Below are positions 353 through 6,642 of a stretch of DNA of 32,000 nucleotides, in pieces. The DNA comes from Candidatus Pacearchaeota archaeon (lineage in GTDB: Archaea; Nanobdellota; Nanobdellia; Pacearchaeales; UBA284). Position 1 is the first letter of the stretch. Every line of letters starts with the position of its first letter. The stretch is taken from contig CP061211.1 of NCBI GenBank assembly GCA_026016245.1, positions 120,001 to 152,000 on the forward strand. The letters run 5' to 3'. The notes under the pieces were generated by a model. The model did not search any database and was not told where the DNA came from. It was given only the letters and a program-made list of their open reading frames with translations. Made by a program: the position numbers and the translations under genes.

Positions 353-1576
353 ATGATAGATGAATCTTTATGTATTAGATGTAAAGGTAGGGGGTGGTGT
401 GGCGGGCCTTGCAAGATCTTAGCTAGGCTTAGGGAATTTCAGCCGAAGATATCTAAAGAATTTTCTGGTTCAAGTCCTCCAGAAATTTTTGTTGGTCGTT
501 ACGGCTATCCTAATGTTTTTACAGGGATTCTTGCTCCAACAGAATTTGGAGAGACAGAAGAACTAAGCATGCCTGAAGTGTGGCATGAGCAAGGGGCAGG
601 TATTCAGGATATCCTTGCTTATCGCTCTAGGATGATTTATTCAAGATTTATTTCAAGTATAAAAAGTGCTAGATCAAAACAGCAGTCAAGGCTTCTAGAT
701 TTAATGCAGGAAATAAGTTTAGCGAGCAAGCCAGTTGATGCAAGTTTCAAGTTAAAAAAGAAACCGAGAGTAAGGATACAAATGGATGCTCATGTTCCTA
801 TGATAGGCAATCCTGCTCCTCTAAAGTCAGTAAAACTAGAATCAAATCCTAAAGTTGAGAAGAAAGTAGATTATCTCACAAGTGATACTGATGTTAAATC
901 AACTCAAGCAATCAAAGAACTTTACAAATCAAAGATTCCAGTGAGTAACATCATAAAGATTTTGAGTGGTGGTATGTTAGGTTTGAGGATTCAGAGAAGA
1001 CTTGTTCCGACAAGATGGGCTGTGAGTGCGATAGATGATACAATTTCTAAAACATTGCTGGAAAAAATCAGACACTATCAGGAAATTTCTTCTTATCTTC
1101 TTTTTCATGCCAGTTATCTTGGAAATTATTATAATATTATTCTGATACCCAATTGTTGGTCATTTGAAGTTATTGAGGCGAGTGCGAAAGGATATTTTGG
1201 TAGGAATTATAGGATAGCGACATGGCAGGATTATGAGTTTTTCCAGAAAAGAAAGAAATATGCTTTTAGTGTGACAGGGGCTTATTATGCTAACAGACTT
1301 GCTGTTTGTGAATATTTATATAAGACGAAGAGGCAGGCTTCTGTTCTTGTTTTGAGGGAAATTCGTGATGAATATTGGGCTCCTTGTGGTGTTGGTATTT
1401 TGCGAGAAGTGACAAGAGAGGCCATGCAAAGCAAGCCTGAAAAATTTGACACACTTAAAGGAGCACTAAGTACAGCACAGACAAAATTTAAGTTACCTCT
1501 AGAAATTTATACAACAAAAAGTAAATTATTACAGAATATTAAAACACAGACAAGGCTTTCTAAATTTTTATCTTAA
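353..1576 (+). CDS. Nre-family DNA repair protein (DUF650/DUF651-type architecture)
   Basis: N-terminal cysteine cluster CIRCKGRGWCGGPC followed by SSPPEIFVGRYGYPNV, which I recognise as the archaeal Nre signature. The length (~400 aa) is typical. Confidence 0.65.
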   Translation: MIDESLCIRCKGRGWCGGPCKILARLREFQPKISKEFSGSSPPEIFVGRYGYPNVFTGILAPTEFGETEELSMPEVWHEQGAGIQDILAYRSRMIYSRFISSIKSARSKQQSRLLDLMQEISLASKPVDASFKLKKKPRVRIQMDAHVPMIGNPAPLKSVKLESNPKVEKKVDYLTSDTDVKSTQAIKELYKSKIPVSNIIKILSGGMLGLRIQRRLVPTRWAVSAIDDTISKTLLEKIRHYQEISSYLLFHASYLGNYYNIILIPNCWSFEVIEASAKGYFGRNYRIATWQDYEFFQKRKKYAFSVTGAYYANRLAVCEYLYKTKRQASVLVLREIRDEYWAPCGVGILREVTREAMQSKPEKFDTLKGALSTAQTKFKLPLEIYTTKSKLLQNIKTQTRLSKFLS

Positions 1577-2298
1577 AAACAACCACATTTTAGAAGCCAC
1601 ATCAAAGCTAGGCCAACAAGAATAAAGATAAGTTGTAATAATGATTCTGAAATTTTAATTCTTTTATGTAGTTCAGGTATTAGGTCAGTTGCAGCTATGT
1701 AAATAAAGCCGCCTGCTGCAAATGGAAGAAGAAATGTTGTGTCAATGCTGGCACTTAAGAAATAGCCAACTAGAGCCCCTAGAATTGCTGTCAAGGCACT
1801 AAAGAAGTTATAAAGCATGGCTCTTCCTTTTTTGAAGCCTCCATAGACAAGAACCCCAAAATCACCTATTTCTTGAGGTATTTCATGAAGGATTATTGCG
1901 ATGGTTGTTGTTATTCCTAGTCCTATGTTTATTAGATAGGCTGCAGCGATAATTAAGCCATCAATAAAATTATGCAAGGCATCTCCTATAAGAATTGTAT
2001 ATCTAAATGTGTGCACAGGACATTTTCCTTTGTGGCAATGTCTCCAGTAAAGGAATTTTTCCAGCACAAAGAAGATCAGAATTCCTCCAATTATATATAA
2101 TGAAACTTTTCCTATTCCTAATTCAAGAGATTCTGGTATGAGATGAAAGAAAGCTCCTCCTAGCAAGGCACCTGAAGCTAAGGCTATAAATAGAATGAGA
2201 ATTTTCTTAAGAAATTTTTCCTTGAACGCGAGAAAAAATATACCTACAAAAGCTATGAGGCTTACTATGATTACTGAAATTAAGATCCAGAGTAGCAT
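1573..2298 (-). CDS. ZIP-family divalent metal (Zn/Fe) transporter
   Basis: Polytopic membrane protein with the ZIP motifs HNFIDGL and HEIPQEIGDFGVL in adjacent helices. Confidence 0.85.
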   Translation of the reverse strand: MLLWILISVIIVSLIAFVGIFFLAFKEKFLKKILILFIALASGALLGGAFFHLIPESLELGIGKVSLYIIGGILIFFVLEKFLYWRHCHKGKCPVHTFRYTILIGDALHNFIDGLIIAAAYLINIGLGITTTIAIILHEIPQEIGDFGVLVYGGFKKGRAMLYNFFSALTAILGALVGYFLSASIDTTFLLPFAAGGFIYIAATDLIPELHKRIKISESLLQLIFILVGLALMWLLKCGCF

Positions 2299-2302
2299 TT
2301 TT

Positions 2303-2584
2303 CTATCCAGTTAATTCTTCAACTTCTTTTTTGCCAGCTTCAAGTTCCTTTACTTGCTCAGAGTCATATTTCAATAGTAAAGTTTGGAATTCTCCGAGAT
2401 GAGTTTTTTCTTCTTTTGTTATATCAATAAGAACTTTCTTTATGTCTTCTTTATCTGTTATTGCTGCTAATTGTTCGTAAAGGCTGACTGCATCAAGTTC
2501 TGCAATCATTCCTACTCTAAGGATTTCTGCGTTAAGCTGGTCTTTTGGCACTTTTCTTAAATCTTCTGGTATTTTTGATAACAT
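2303..2584 (-). CDS. small ferritin-like / EncFtn-rubrerythrin-like protein
   Basis: 93 aa with ELDAVSLYEQ ... EEKTHLGEF (an ExxH di-iron type motif) as in ~100-aa mini-ferritins. Lies 4 nt from the ZIP gene on the same strand. Confidence 0.65.
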   Translation of the reverse strand: MLSKIPEDLRKVPKDQLNAEILRVGMIAELDAVSLYEQLAAITDKEDIKKVLIDITKEEKTHLGEFQTLLLKYDSEQVKELEAGKKEVEELTG

Positions 2585-2938: not shown

Positions 2939-3835
2939 TTATTCTCTGATCATTAAAGTTTTACTCCTTAATTTTTCCAATATACTCAAAAATAATTTTT
3001 CAAAGTTTTTTTCATAAACAACTATTGGTTTTAAATTAACTAAAGCTTCAACAAATTTTTTATCATAAGGTATTTTTCCTAATATGGGAATCTTATACTT
3101 ATCAGCAAAATTTTCTATTTTTTTACTAAATTTTCTATTTAGATCATATTTATTTATAATGATTCCATAAGGAATTCTAAAATGTTCAACTACCTGTAAA
3201 ACTCTCTGAAGATCATTTAATGCAGCTGGGCTTGGTTCTGTAATTGCAATAATATAATCAGAACCTTGAATAGAAGCGATTACTGGACAACCAATCCCTG
3301 GTGAGCTATCAACAATAATAATTTCAGCCTTTTCTTTTTTCGCATTCTCCTCTGCTTTATTTTTTACTTCAGTTACAATTTTTCCGCTTCCACTTTCTCC
3401 TATTTTAAGCTGACCAGAAACAATGTTGAAGCCATAAACTGTTTTTCCTGTATTGATGAAACCGTTTTGAACTTTTTCTAGCTTTATATTCTTTGGATAA
3501 AGTAAATGGCAAGAACCACACCCTTCACATAAGAAACGATCGAAAATCAATTTTTTCTTTTTACTATCCCAAGAGATTGCACTAAAATTACAGATTTCTA
3601 TTAACTTTTTAGGATTAATTCCTTTCATAGAAATTAGCCTTGCTTTCTCATTTGTACTTATTTTTTTCTGCTCTTTAAAATGTTTCAAACCAAGAACAAG
3701 AGCTAAATTAGGTGCATCTACATCACAATCAACTGCAATAACTTTGTGTTTTTTTGCAAGCAGAACAGCAAGCGAAGCTGTAATAGAGCTTTTTCCAACT
3801 CCTCCTTTTCCTGATAAAATTGTTAGCGTTTTCAT
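2939..3835 (-). CDS. MinD/Mrp-superfamily P-loop ATPase with degenerate inserted ferredoxin-like segment
   Basis: Deviant Walker A GKGGVGKS at the N-terminus, an inserted CEGCGSC segment, IIVDSSPG Walker B. Paralog of the upstream gene, with a 4-nt overlap. Confidence 0.85.
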   Translation of the reverse strand: MKTLTILSGKGGVGKSSITASLAVLLAKKHKVIAVDCDVDAPNLALVLGLKHFKEQKKISTNEKARLISMKGINPKKLIEICNFSAISWDSKKKKLIFDRFLCEGCGSCHLLYPKNIKLEKVQNGFINTGKTVYGFNIVSGQLKIGESGSGKIVTEVKNKAEENAKKEKAEIIIVDSSPGIGCPVIASIQGSDYIIAITEPSPAALNDLQRVLQVVEHFRIPYGIIINKYDLNRKFSKKIENFADKYKIPILGKIPYDKKFVEALVNLKPIVVYEKNFEKLFLSILEKLRSKTLMIRE

Positions 3836-4671
3836 TTTAACTTCTCTATAAAATTAGCAATCTTATTTATGCTTTCATCTTCTATTGGCTTGCCTCTTGA
3901 AAAAGCTTCGAGAATTTCTTTCTTATAAGGGATTTCAGCAATTATTTTTGTTTTATATTTTTTAACAATTTTTTTAATTAGATTTTTATCTCCAACATTT
4001 GATCTGTTAAGTATGACTTTTGCTGGGATCTTTAGCATTTTAGTTAACTCCAAGATAAGTTCTAAGTCATAAGCTCCTAGGGGTGTTGGTTCTGTAACAG
4101 CAAGAGCAAGATCACAACCTAATAAAGCTGCTATAACATTGCAATGAGTTCCTGCTCCTGTATCAATTATTATAAAATCATAATCTTGCTCTTTTTTTGA
4201 GGCAAAATTTTTTTCTGCATTAACTATAGGAGAAGCTTCTTCATAGCCAATTACCATTTCTCCAGTTACCAAATTAATGTCATGGCCTTTTCCAGAGTAA
4301 ATTGTTCCAATTTGTTTTTTTGTTCTGCTTATTGCTCCTACTGGACAGATTATTGAACAAGCATTACACCCTATACATAAGTCTGAAACAAAAATTGGAT
4401 ATTTTTCTTTTATAGAAAGAATTGCATTTGCTCTGCAAACCTGAGCACATTTACCACATTTAATACATTTTTTATGATTGAACTTTGGAATAGATTGGTA
4501 AATAGCTTGCTCTTTTTTTCTTTTAATTGAAAGAATTATGTGGTCATTAGGGCAGTCAACATCAGCATCTATTAATAAGATTTTCTTTTTCTTTGCTAAT
4601 TCAACAGCAAGTGCTGTAGCCACAGTTGATTTACCTGTTCCTCCTTTGCCTCCTGTTATTGCAATTCTCAT
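3832..4671 (-). CDS. MinD/Mrp-superfamily P-loop ATPase with inserted 2x[4Fe-4S] ferredoxin domain
   Basis: Walker A GKGGTGKS. Two CxxCxxCxxxC(P) motifs (CIKCGKCAQVC, CIGCNACSIICP) inserted after the P-loop. IIIDTGAG Walker B. Confidence 0.9.
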   Translation of the reverse strand: MRIAITGGKGGTGKSTVATALAVELAKKKKILLIDADVDCPNDHIILSIKRKKEQAIYQSIPKFNHKKCIKCGKCAQVCRANAILSIKEKYPIFVSDLCIGCNACSIICPVGAISRTKKQIGTIYSGKGHDINLVTGEMVIGYEEASPIVNAEKNFASKKEQDYDFIIIDTGAGTHCNVIAALLGCDLALAVTEPTPLGAYDLELILELTKMLKIPAKVILNRSNVGDKNLIKKIVKKYKTKIIAEIPYKKEILEAFSRGKPIEDESINKIANFIEKLK

Positions 4672-4802
4672 ATTATTTAATTTATTTGTTATTTATTTAA
4701 TGAAATAAATCTGCTACTTTTAGCCTGTCTTGGATTGTATAGTTATTATAAAGAATAACTAAAGTTATGTGGAACATTTTAATCTATTGGGTTCTGTCTT
4801 TT

Positions 4803-5201
4803 CTAAAATTTCTTCCCTCTTCCTTTATCAGCTCCAGCACCCATAAACATAGGTCCTGTCGATGAACTTATCTTTTTCAACTTTCCATCTATCAATTGTT
4901 TTATAACAGCCTTTATCTTACCAGAGCCTTGATACATTTCAATGCTTAGCTGTTGTAGAACGCCGAATGCTCTAGGACCCAGATTCATTGTTATGATTGC
5001 ATTTACTTTTTCATTTGCAACAACTTGGGCTGCTGTTATACCTGCCCCACCAAATTGGGCTGCAGCTGTGTTTTTTATTGTCTTAATTTTTTTTATTTTT
5101 TTGTTCTCAATTTCAACCACAACAAAATATGGGCAACGACCAAATCTTGCATCAACTTGACTTTCAATACCTTCTCCTGTTGAACTTATAGCTACTTTCA
5201 T
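4803..5201 (-). CDS. NifX/NifB-C/NafY-like (dinitrogenase FeMo-cofactor-binding fold) protein
   Basis: MKVAISS..G....VDARFGRCPYFVVVE N-terminus is characteristic of the NifX_NifB domain family. Strong SD (AGGAGGAAAAA-ATG). Confidence 0.8.
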   Translation of the reverse strand: MKVAISSTGEGIESQVDARFGRCPYFVVVEIENKKIKKIKTIKNTAAAQFGGAGITAAQVVANEKVNAIITMNLGPRAFGVLQQLSIEMYQGSGKIKAVIKQLIDGKLKKISSSTGPMFMGAGADKGRGKKF

Positions 5202-5277
5202 TTTTTCCTCCTTTGTTTAGCATAATTTAGCATATCTACTTTTTTAATTAAAGTAAAAAACAACTTAAAAAGTTTTC

Positions 5278-5484
5278 TTATCCTCGAGTCATAGCGCTTC
5301 CACATTTAGGACATTTCTGCTGATAGCAAGGAATTCCTATTTGGTGAGACATTCTATAGCCACACTTTGGACAGACACATTCACCACCTGGGCCTGCTGC
5401 AAAACCACCCATGCGACCTCTACCAGTCTGGCCTCTACCTGCTCCAGCGCCTGCTCCACGACCAATTCCTCTTCCATTTGACAT
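5278..5484 (-). CDS. Gly/Arg-rich (RGG) + zinc-ribbon mini-protein
   Basis: 68 aa with a GRGxGxGxGRG tract followed by CVCPKCG-x13-C-x4-CPKCG. Paralogous to the C-terminal module of the next gene. SD AGGAGGAAATAAA-ATG. Confidence 0.6.
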   Translation of the reverse strand: MSNGRGIGRGAGAGAGRGQTGRGRMGGFAAGPGGECVCPKCGYRMSHQIGIPCYQQKCPKCGSAMTRG

Positions 5485-5518
5485 TTTATTTCCTCCTGCC
5501 TTTCGGCAATTATTTAGT

Positions 5519-6022
5519 TTAATCTCCTCTTACCATCAAGGAGCTACATTTTTTACACATCATCTGGTTGCATGGTATTCCAGGAACTTTAGTTTCTTTA
5601 TTACCACATTTAGGACAGATACAAAAGCCAGCAGGGCCAGCTCCTCTGCCAAATCCTCTGCCTCTTCCTCTTCCCATGCCTCTACCAAAACCTCTGCCAC
5701 GACCAGGGCCAACTATTGGTGATGTGACAGGGGTAATCATTTCATACCTACCTCCTTGAATTTTTATTATTTTATTATTTACAAGAGCATCAGCTACTTT
5801 TTTCCTTGCAGCTAGAATTAATCTGTGAAAAGTTGGCTGTGAAATTCCCATCTGTTCAGCTGCTTTTTCCTGTTCCATGGCTTTAAGATCTTTAAGCCTT
5901 ATGGCCTCAAATTCATCTAAAGTTAGGATAATTTCTTCTGGCAAAGTAGGCCCACCTACAGGAGCAAAGTGACTGATTCCTGGCATAAAACCAATTCTTC
6001 TTCTACGTCTTAATCTTGGCAT
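5519..6022 (-). CDS. DUF134/UPF0251-like HTH DNA-binding protein fused to RGG + zinc-ribbon module
   Basis: N-terminus MPRLRRRRRIGFMP....F.P and LTLDEFEAIRL.DL....QE.AAEQMGISQPTFHRLI match the DUF134 pattern (sigma-70 region-4-like HTH). The C-terminus is an RGRGFGRG tract plus CICPKCG...GIPC...CKKC. Confidence 0.75.
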   Translation of the reverse strand: MPRLRRRRRIGFMPGISHFAPVGGPTLPEEIILTLDEFEAIRLKDLKAMEQEKAAEQMGISQPTFHRLILAARKKVADALVNNKIIKIQGGRYEMITPVTSPIVGPGRGRGFGRGMGRGRGRGFGRGAGPAGFCICPKCGNKETKVPGIPCNQMMCKKCSSLMVRGD

Positions 6023-6104
6023 TTTTCTTTTTTATTTTATTTTCTCGATTGCTTCTTTAAATCTCTCACTCATTGTTCACTTCTCGTCTTTTTATTTATT
6101 CTAC

Positions 6105-6545
6105 TTATTCTTCTATTTCAAGGTTTTTTAATTTTTCTTGGATCTTCTTTAGTTCAGATTCTAGGGCTTTCATTTCTTCTTGCATTTCTTTTCTGTCTTC
6201 TTTCAGTATTTCTTTTATCTCATCTTTTGCAGGTTCTTCATAGTAGTCTTCATAAGGATATTCATAGTCTCCTTCATAAGCATAAGGTGCATAACCCCAT
6301 GGATTCCAGAATCTTTGTCTTCTGAATCTGAAGCCTCTGCCCCTAAAACCTCTTCCTTGTCCTCTGCCAAAACCTCTGCCTCTGTTCATACCTCTACCAA
6401 AACCTCTGCCAAATCCTCTTCTAGCCATTCCCATGCCAAATCCTGGATTCATAAATCCTGGTACAGAATAGCCTGCACAGTAACCTAAACTTCTTCCTGT
6501 CATTGGTCCTATTCCATCTAGACCTGTTCCATCTCCTCTAGGCAT
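6105..6545 (-). CDS. DUF5320-like protein (RGG tract + C-terminal coiled coil)
   Basis: N-terminus MPRGDGTGLDGIGPMTGRSLGYCAG is the pattern I associate with DUF5320. Followed by a GFGRGFGRG tract, an acidic/aromatic stretch and a heptad-like C-terminus. SD AGGAGGAAATAAA-ATG, identical to the one upstream of 5484. Confidence 0.65.
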   Translation of the reverse strand: MPRGDGTGLDGIGPMTGRSLGYCAGYSVPGFMNPGFGMGMARRGFGRGFGRGMNRGRGFGRGQGRGFRGRGFRFRRQRFWNPWGYAPYAYEGDYEYPYEDYYEEPAKDEIKEILKEDRKEMQEEMKALESELKKIQEKLKNLEIEE

Positions 6546-6560
6546 TTTATTTCCTCCTAT

Positions 6561-6576
6561 ATGAATTTATATTCAT
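6561..6576. promoter_or_regulatory. ATGAAT-N4-ATTCAT palindrome, copy 1 (candidate operator)
   Basis: atgaatttatattcat, located 16 nt upstream of the DUF5320-like start codon. Confidence 0.35.
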
Positions 6577-6626: not shown

Positions 6627-6642
6627 ATGAATATATATTCAT
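6627..6642. promoter_or_regulatory. ATGAAT-N4-ATTCAT palindrome, copy 2 (perfect 16-bp palindrome)
   Basis: atgaatatatattcat is its own reverse complement. Lies 66 bp from copy 1 in the same intergenic region. Confidence 0.35.

Follow-up and report, generated by a model that had tools for sequence, protein, structure and literature searches.

A conserved six-cysteine ribbon and its glycine-arginine tracts in a six-gene cluster of a Pacearchaeota archaeon

Why do three adjacent genes of a small archaeal genome carry glycine-arginine tracts, and why do two of them encode the same cysteine-rich module? The genes lie in a 32,000-nucleotide (nt) stretch of Candidatus Pacearchaeota archaeon (assembly GCA_026016245.1, contig CP061211.1, positions 120,001 to 152,000 of the forward strand), hereafter the window. 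They encode a free-standing protein of 68 amino acids (aa), a DUF134 protein with the module at its C terminus, and a DUF5320 protein, and they belong to a run of six minus-strand genes, all co-oriented, at 2939-6545. An earlier reading of these letters (the original prediction) had described zinc-ribbon modules preceded by RGG tracts and had framed them as eukaryote-type RNA-binding or condensate-forming elements. We found that the module is real and uncharacterised, that it very probably belongs to the ORP/IssA-type iron-sulfur (Fe-S) and metal-handling gene set of anaerobes, and that RNA binding is not the best-supported frame. The three tract-bearing genes and their parts are as follows.

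5278-5484, minus strand: free-standing ribbon protein (68 aa), an open reading frame (ORF) with the tract first and the ribbon second

5395-5484, minus strand: GRGx tract of the 68-aa protein (residues 1-30), ending in GRGRMGG; predicted local distance difference test (pLDDT) about 50 in the AlphaFold2 (AF2) model

5281-5394, minus strand: six-Cys ribbon of the 68-aa protein (residues 31-68), with the conserved His; AF2 pLDDT 80-89

5519-6022, minus strand: DUF134-ribbon fusion protein (167 aa); PF02001 at 93.7 bits (cut-off 27)

5732-6022, minus strand: DUF134 helix-turn-helix (HTH) domain (residues 1-97); PF02001; AF2 pLDDT 80-93

5633-5731, minus strand: GRGx tract linking HTH domain and ribbon (residues 98-130); predicted disordered, AF2 pLDDT about 40

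5519-5632, minus strand: six-Cys ribbon of the DUF134 protein (residues 131-167 plus stop), a divergent subtype; AF2 pLDDT about 80

6105-6545, minus strand: DUF5320 protein (146 aa), first gene of the cluster; PF17253 at 72.8 bits (cut-off 27)

The scores against PF02001 and PF17253 bear out the DUF134-like and DUF5320-like labels given earlier. The two module copies are also paralogous, as had been proposed: residues 33-68 of the 68-aa ORF align without a gap to residues 131-166 of the 167-aa ORF, with 19 of 36 positions identical (BLASTP, E 2e-11). The description of the module as a zinc ribbon with four cysteines, however, was incomplete. The ribbon stands, but its pattern is CxCxxC-x11-C-x4-CxxC, with six conserved cysteines and a nearly invariant histidine, and it is therefore not a plain four-Cys ribbon. 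Two rubredoxin-type CPxCG knuckles are conserved throughout the family (both read CPKCG in the free copy), and beyond the knuckle ligands there are two more invariant cysteines, in CxCxxC and GxPC, together with the histidine. We assessed conservation in 150 representatives, mutually no more than 50% identical, and at least 90% of them keep each of the six cysteines, the histidine, a GPGG lead-in, and a closing M-x-R. Likewise, G21, G23, and the six cysteines are invariant in a 40-row alignment, and R22 is nearly so. We regard it as highly likely that the module forms a cysteine-ligated metal site. The copy fused to DUF134 has lysine in place of the histidine and a second knuckle, CKKCS, without its proline and glycine, a divergent subtype that is common to same-family genomes (L016-L019).

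No family in Pfam or NCBIfam reaches its cut-off for the ribbon module, and a PDB sequence search with the module profile and the fusion protein returned only chance-level or compositional matches, which agrees with the earlier view that this is not a known, characterised family. Two database leads were set aside. The match to DUF7479 (PF24292) precomputed for one homologue is below cut-off and covers a C-terminal extension rather than the ribbon, and the automatic name "Ferredoxin family protein" on ESM Atlas clusters was taken as an annotation lead and not as evidence. In the AF2 model of the 68-aa protein, short strands are predicted at each knuckle. Searches with this model (Foldseek and VIA) placed zinc ribbons, rubredoxin, and desulforedoxin on top, at chance level (best E 0.27, best Z 2.8). 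As modelled, the module resembles zinc ribbon and rubredoxin-type folds (rubredoxin, desulforedoxin, and the ribbons of MCM, aIF2-gamma, and PolD) in its two CPxCG-type knuckles on short beta hairpins. It differs from them in the two additional invariant cysteines and the histidine, in having no significant match, and in a gene context that is specific to Fe-S and metal genes.

How widely does the module occur, and how did this genome come to have two copies? A word-indexed search retrieved 72 near-length homologues of the 68-aa protein. We then built a hidden Markov model (HMM) of the module, as had been suggested for mapping its distribution and fusion partners. An exhaustive HMMER search of 1.84 billion representative proteins gave 1454 representative clusters at E <= 1e-3, of which 191 reach E <= 1e-10. 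In a pattern scan with one genome per species, at least 585 loci (species genomes) carried the module. Carriers include DPANN archaea, Bathyarchaeia, Thermoplasmata, Desulfobacterota, Chloroflexota, Planctomycetota, and other anaerobic bacterial phyla, and the module's closest named relatives come from DPANN archaea. The arrangement, thought at first to be unusual, is thus not private to this organism; anaerobes of many phyla have these genes together. Closer to home, a search of 40 related genomes found one module copy in 8 of 23 genomes of the same family and in one of the same order. In the eight same-family genomes the module is the DUF134-ribbon fusion, placed in a rearranged version of the cluster, and among the genomes searched the free-standing copy was found in this one only.

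One account of the pair is that it arose by recent local duplication and that the tracts are functionless, low-complexity products of slippage. Several features of the DNA lend themselves to this account. The identical initiation region noted earlier for the free-standing and DUF5320 genes is real, with shuffled sequences predicting no such match over its 16 nt:

5482-5497, minus strand: Shine-Dalgarno, spacer, and ATG of the 68-aa gene, AGGAGGAAATAAAATG

6543-6558, minus strand: Shine-Dalgarno, spacer, and ATG of the DUF5320 gene, AGGAGGAAATAAAATG

In addition, the GRGx tracts follow a 12-nt period in the DNA, and the DUF134 and DUF5320 tracts share a repeat (up to 87% over 39 nt). Because this repeat is partly common to the genes, it points to slippage or conversion, and the distal part of the tract varies in orthologues from 0 to about 40 aa. 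However, modules from other organisms, fused as well as free, share 76-83% identity with the free copy, whereas its neighbour shares only 54%. On this comparison we rejected a recent tandem duplication, and the pair is better described, from its sequence relationships, as an old paralogy with frequent fusion and fission. Nor do the tracts look like mere drift. The GRGRMGG directly before the ribbon is nearly invariant in the 40-row alignment, at least two RG or GR dipeptides precede the ribbon in 73% of 207 module instances, and enrichment extends over four protein families across phyla. Specifically, a density of at least four RG/GR per 30 aa is reached by 79% of DUF5320 proteins, 72% of DUF134 proteins, 72% of ribbon proteins, and 23% of NifX-like proteins, versus 2.6% of the other ORFs at the same loci. 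We therefore consider duplication with slippage very improbable as an account of the pair and its tracts.

The likeness between the free-standing and DUF5320 genes runs past the initiation region into the first codons (38 nt, 76%), and an MPRGDGTGP N terminus of DUF5320 type starts 38 of 218 retrieved ribbon-family proteins; the two genes may therefore have homologous 5' ends. There are other resemblances to DUF5320 (PF17253): one protein (P0043) scores 26.6 bits against the cut-off of 27, and positions 35-58 of the profile align with the DUF134 protein's tract. The 68-aa protein, in contrast, lacks the coiled coil of DUF5320, and we rejected its membership in that family, as it has no PF17253 match at E <= 1.

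The company that the module keeps bears most directly on its function. Downstream of the three tract-bearing genes, the cluster contains the following.

4803-5201, minus strand: NifX/IssA/ORP-like carrier (Nitro_FeMo-Co) with a short GRGKKF end; PF02579 at 76.5 bits

3832-4671, minus strand: MinD/CbiA-type ATPase with two 4Fe-4S motifs, from domain searches

2939-3835, minus strand: second MinD/CbiA-type ATPase, overlapping the 3832-4671 gene by 4 nt

To characterize this neighbourhood elsewhere, we examined 80 loci from different species, using HMMs iterated from the window's own proteins over the ORFs of each locus. In 66 of the 80 loci the module has a gene for a NifX-like (NifX/IssA-like) protein or a MinD-type Fe-S ATPase no more than 3 kb away; DUF5320 is that close in 44, and DUF134 in 36. 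As an internal control, partner genes per kilobase were more than 20-fold fewer at 5-8 kb than at 0-1.5 kb. Fusions tell a similar story. Among the 150 best representatives the module is fused to Nitro_FeMo-Co (12), PDZ (9), and DUF134 (9), and also to Fer4, rhodanese, and trypsin-like protease domains. One related genome has a single-cluster ferredoxin (Fer4) fused to the module (L014), and in another the ribbon is inserted into DUF5320 (L020). Across the set of 89 loci that we used for counts of CDF fusions, RNA-related partners, and the palindrome described below, nine encode a CDF metal exporter with a basic Gly/aromatic linker and a C-terminal ribbon (ORFs of 356-400 aa in L023, L029, L031, L034, L036, L045, L066, L078, and L085), mostly inside the cluster. 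Where this gene directly abuts the DUF134 gene (5 loci), it is located just upstream of it. All partners and neighbours found are metal or Fe-S proteins or the cluster's own HTH protein.

These genes have counterparts in two described systems. The closest solved chains to the window carrier are MTH1175 (E 2.4e-23), which has been placed in the IssA clade (PMC5524996), and then ORP 2wfb (E 4.6e-12). IssA of Pyrococcus furiosus consists of a NifX-like domain with a cationic Gly/Arg/aromatic tail (PMC5524996), and the window shares features of both parts: its carrier is nearest to MTH1175, NifX-like proteins of related loci bear GRGx tails, and its tracts are rich in Gly, Arg, and aromatics, high in isoelectric point (pI), and predicted to be disordered. 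Unlike in IssA, the tails here are on the DUF5320, DUF134, and ribbon proteins while the carrier has just its short GRGKKF end, and the six-Cys ribbon has no counterpart in IssA. The second comparison is with the ORP complex genes of Desulfovibrio vulgaris Hildenborough (Orp3, 4, 5, 8, and 9), whose role is unsettled (PMC6345978, PMC8359166). The architecture described for Orp3 and Orp4 matches the two MinD-type ATPases of the window (PMC6345978). In both systems, two MinD-type ATPases with ferredoxin motifs are located together with a NifX-like carrier, and both are restricted to anaerobes. In contrast, the window cluster has neither the sigma-54 activator OrpR nor an Orp9-type fusion of Mrp/NBP35 and NifX (the genome's one Nitro_FeMo-Co match is a stand-alone gene), and the candidate regulator here is DUF134 with its ribbon. 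The six-Cys ribbon and the Gly-Arg proteins are not described in the ORP papers (PMC6345978, PMC8359166), and we found no mention of the small Gly-Arg and Cys-rich proteins of the ORP/IssA-type set in the searchable literature.

What, then, of the tracts that had suggested RNA binding? Their presence in three adjacent genes was confirmed by a scan of RG/GR density that covered every ORF of 50 aa or more in the genome (2014 ORFs): the three window genes, with 15, 14, and 9 dipeptides per 30 aa, are the top three, and the next ORF has 5. They are not RGG tracts, however. The triplet RGG occurs zero times in all three proteins, and RG occurs 5, 8, and 10 times, as GRGx with F, M, R, or L at x. 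The DUF134 protein alone has 8 RG, 7 GRG, and 0 RGG, in a tract of pI 12. The DUF5320 protein has an MPRGDGTG N terminus, a GRGF tract that includes aromatics, an acidic stretch rich in Tyr, and a coiled coil at its C terminus, so that a cationic/aromatic stretch is paired with an acidic/aromatic one.

It is possible that the tracts are RG/RGG-type elements by which the three proteins bind RNA or other nucleic acid, or phase-separate with it, and that the ribbon is an RNA-binding zinc finger. The tracts would fit a loose "tri-RG" pattern, with their predicted disorder and a pI of 12, and the composition of DUF5320 could allow self-association; large particles are formed by IssA itself (PMC5524996). 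The sole PDB sequence similarities were to the RG tail of SmD1, but these are compositional (E 0.16-0.8). Compared with eukaryotic RGG/RG elements (the SmD1 tail and FUS-type boxes), the window tracts share repeated Arg-Gly in a disordered basic stretch and differ in having no RGG, in a GRGx unit whose x is hydrophobic or aromatic, and in a metal/Fe-S context with no link to RNA found. Specifically, there was no RNA-related neighbour or fusion partner in the 89 loci or the 150 representatives. Meanwhile, NifX-like carriers bear the same tails: 44 of 123 NifX-like ORFs in related loci have at least three RG/GR per 30 aa. Because RGG is absent, the context is of metal and Fe-S proteins only, and NifX-like proteins share the tails as in IssA (PMC5524996), we disfavour the eukaryote-type RNA or condensate framing and judge it quite unlikely. 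For the IssA-like alternative, that the tails bind an inorganic polyanion or drive co-assembly rather than contacting RNA, we see the case as evenly balanced.

The second copy of the ribbon raises the question of what a DUF134 protein would do with it. In a Foldseek search with the AF2 model, the DUF134 domain superposes on sigma-70 region 4 and on the DeoR HTH (root mean square deviation 0.6-1.0 A over 40-51 residues, probability 1.00, E 0.03-0.4). Literature searches on DUF134, DUF5320, UPF0251, and COG1342 found no functional study. Upstream of the cluster are two copies of a palindrome that is a candidate operator of the DUF134-ribbon protein.

6561-6576, no strand assigned: ATGAAT-N4-ATTCAT palindrome

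6627-6642, no strand assigned: ATGAAT-N4-ATTCAT palindrome

The palindrome is present in 19 of the 89 loci, whereas shuffles of their 1.03 Mb of DNA predict 0.16 matches. Besides the window, the loci are L012, L013, L015-L018, L022-L024, L028, L029, L032, L034, L035, L045, L073, L078, and L085. Loci with a DUF134-ribbon fusion have the motif in 16 of 24 cases and those with any DUF134 in 18 of 46, versus 1 of 43 for loci without DUF134. Most instances (17 of 21) are found 5-83 bp before the start codon of DUF5320, and the motif is kept 12/12 though the proteins are only about 50% identical. From these patterns it seems likely, on balance, that the DUF134 fusion regulates the cluster through the palindrome.

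Such a regulator might not sense anything. The ribbon could be a structural zinc ribbon that dimerises the DUF134 protein or adds DNA contacts, with GRGR acting as AT-hook-like minor-groove arms on the AT-rich flanks of the operator and the free copy serving as a titrating decoy. A palindromic target site implies a dimer, RGR is the core of the AT-hook, the genome is 32% GC, and split pairs of DUF134 and ribbon genes do occur: at two loci (L030 and L033), a free ribbon gene comes 5-7 bp after a DUF134 gene that itself has no ribbon. This explanation nevertheless leaves too much aside, and we think it unlikely. It does not account for fusions of the ribbon to CDF exporters, ferredoxin, NifX-like, rhodanese, and PDZ proteins, for free ribbon genes that abut MinD and NifX-like genes in bacteria without a fused DUF134, or for the two extra invariant cysteines and the histidine beyond the four ribbon ligands.

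We favour, with somewhat more confidence than doubt, a reading in which the ribbon serves an ORP/IssA-type system as a module that hands off or senses metal or Fe-S, the DUF134 fusion is the regulator of the cluster, and the tracts are IssA-like polycationic tails. On this reading the ribbon would bind a metal ion or a small Fe-S unit and, docked on the NifX-like carrier and the MinD-type Fe-S ATPases, would act in hand-off or sensing, with the free-standing copy as partner or subunit. The second copy, tethered to the DUF134 HTH by a disordered Gly-Arg linker, would make a metal- or cluster-responsive regulator; probably dimeric, it would sit on the ATGAAT-N4-ATTCAT sites before the DUF5320 gene and control the cluster. 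Across the neighbourhood, GRGx tracts would form disordered polycationic tails of the IssA kind, most likely keeping the components and an anionic inorganic cargo together.

Several points weigh against this reading. No experiment is on record for any member of the ribbon family, and the structure searches (Foldseek and VIA) yield only generic matches of the zinc-ribbon or rubredoxin kind. Zinc ribbons frequently have a purely structural role. Since it has lost the conserved histidine and part of the second knuckle, the fused copy may bind metal differently or not at all. The tract is missing in about a sixth of module instances, including all membrane-anchored (multi-ribbon) and signal-peptide forms, and it is therefore separable from the ribbon. 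The loci with the palindrome are all from related, AT-rich DPANN genomes, so its co-occurrence with the fusion does not represent independent events, and some other protein could bind it. Finally, the tail of IssA is proposed, not proven, to bind anionic thioferrate (PMC5524996); such binding is unproven for IssA and the window proteins alike.

A more specific version of the favoured reading can be stated, and we offer it only tentatively, as something that may well prove wrong. The ribbon would be an undescribed domain for iron-sulfide or Fe-S sensing and hand-off, plugged onto DUF134, CDF, NifX-like, and ferredoxin proteins; the DUF134-ribbon proteins would be a new DPANN regulator family with ATGAAT-N4-ATTCAT as operator; and the Gly-Arg tails would bring separate polypeptides together into an IssA-like particle that stores iron sulfide.

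The ORP/IssA-type gene set, whose role in the cell is not settled, is found widely among anaerobes. With the ribbon defined as a domain family that has fusion partners (regulator, exporter, carrier, and ferredoxin) and a candidate operator, the orphan families DUF134 and DUF5320 and the unnamed ribbon become directly testable. The genome setting adds to this interest. The genome is a single contig of 710,724 bp with a GC content of 31.9%; it contains a match to the full length of the archaeal small-subunit rRNA model and has an archaeal Nre gene. DUF134, DUF5320, and NifX-like (Nitro_FeMo-Co) genes occur once each, all in this cluster, and no match to the SufBD core was found in the contig, whose estimated completeness is 91.8%. 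Because the six-gene cluster is kept whole in a 0.71-Mb archaeal genome without a SufBD match, it suggests a part in the iron and sulfur economy of reduced genomes. One IscU/NifU_N gene is located at C1:688034-688423, distant from the cluster.

A number of smaller observations accompany these results. Adjoining the cluster at 1573-2584 (minus strand) are genes for a ferritin/rubrerythrin-like protein of 93 aa and a ZIP metal importer, and the same pair is found again beside the DUF134 gene in relatives (L017:4983-6009, L013, and L019). Directly upstream of the NifX-like gene, at 5216-5234, there is a tandem TTTAGCATA repeat.

The ribbon also turns up in much larger proteins. Seven of 772-1430 aa (P0073, P0075, P0082, P0084, P0096, P0108, and P0205) have an N-terminal membrane helix and two PDZ domains, together with two to five six-Cys ribbons that lack Gly-Arg tracts and between one and three NifX-like domains; P0106, also of this giant PDZ/ribbon type, adds a trypsin-like protease. 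Three others (P0076, P0099, and P0172) combine a signal-peptide-like start with two to three ribbons. Both kinds are possibly extracytoplasmic.

Other recombinations of the same parts were seen as well. In Dehalococcoidia and relatives (L057, L060, L068, L081, L090, L094, and L099), DUF134 occurs without the six-Cys ribbon and has a different ribbon, RFRC..GHEWE...CPxC, and an Arg-Gly tail. Furthermore, NifX-like ORFs at six loci (L047:4886-5449, L060:6557-7078, L062:8952-9593, L072:409-1035, L090:7223-7864, and L092:3762-4364) run on into a tract of GMGRG type and a coiled coil like that of DUF5320, and are thus fused forms of genes that are separate in the window.

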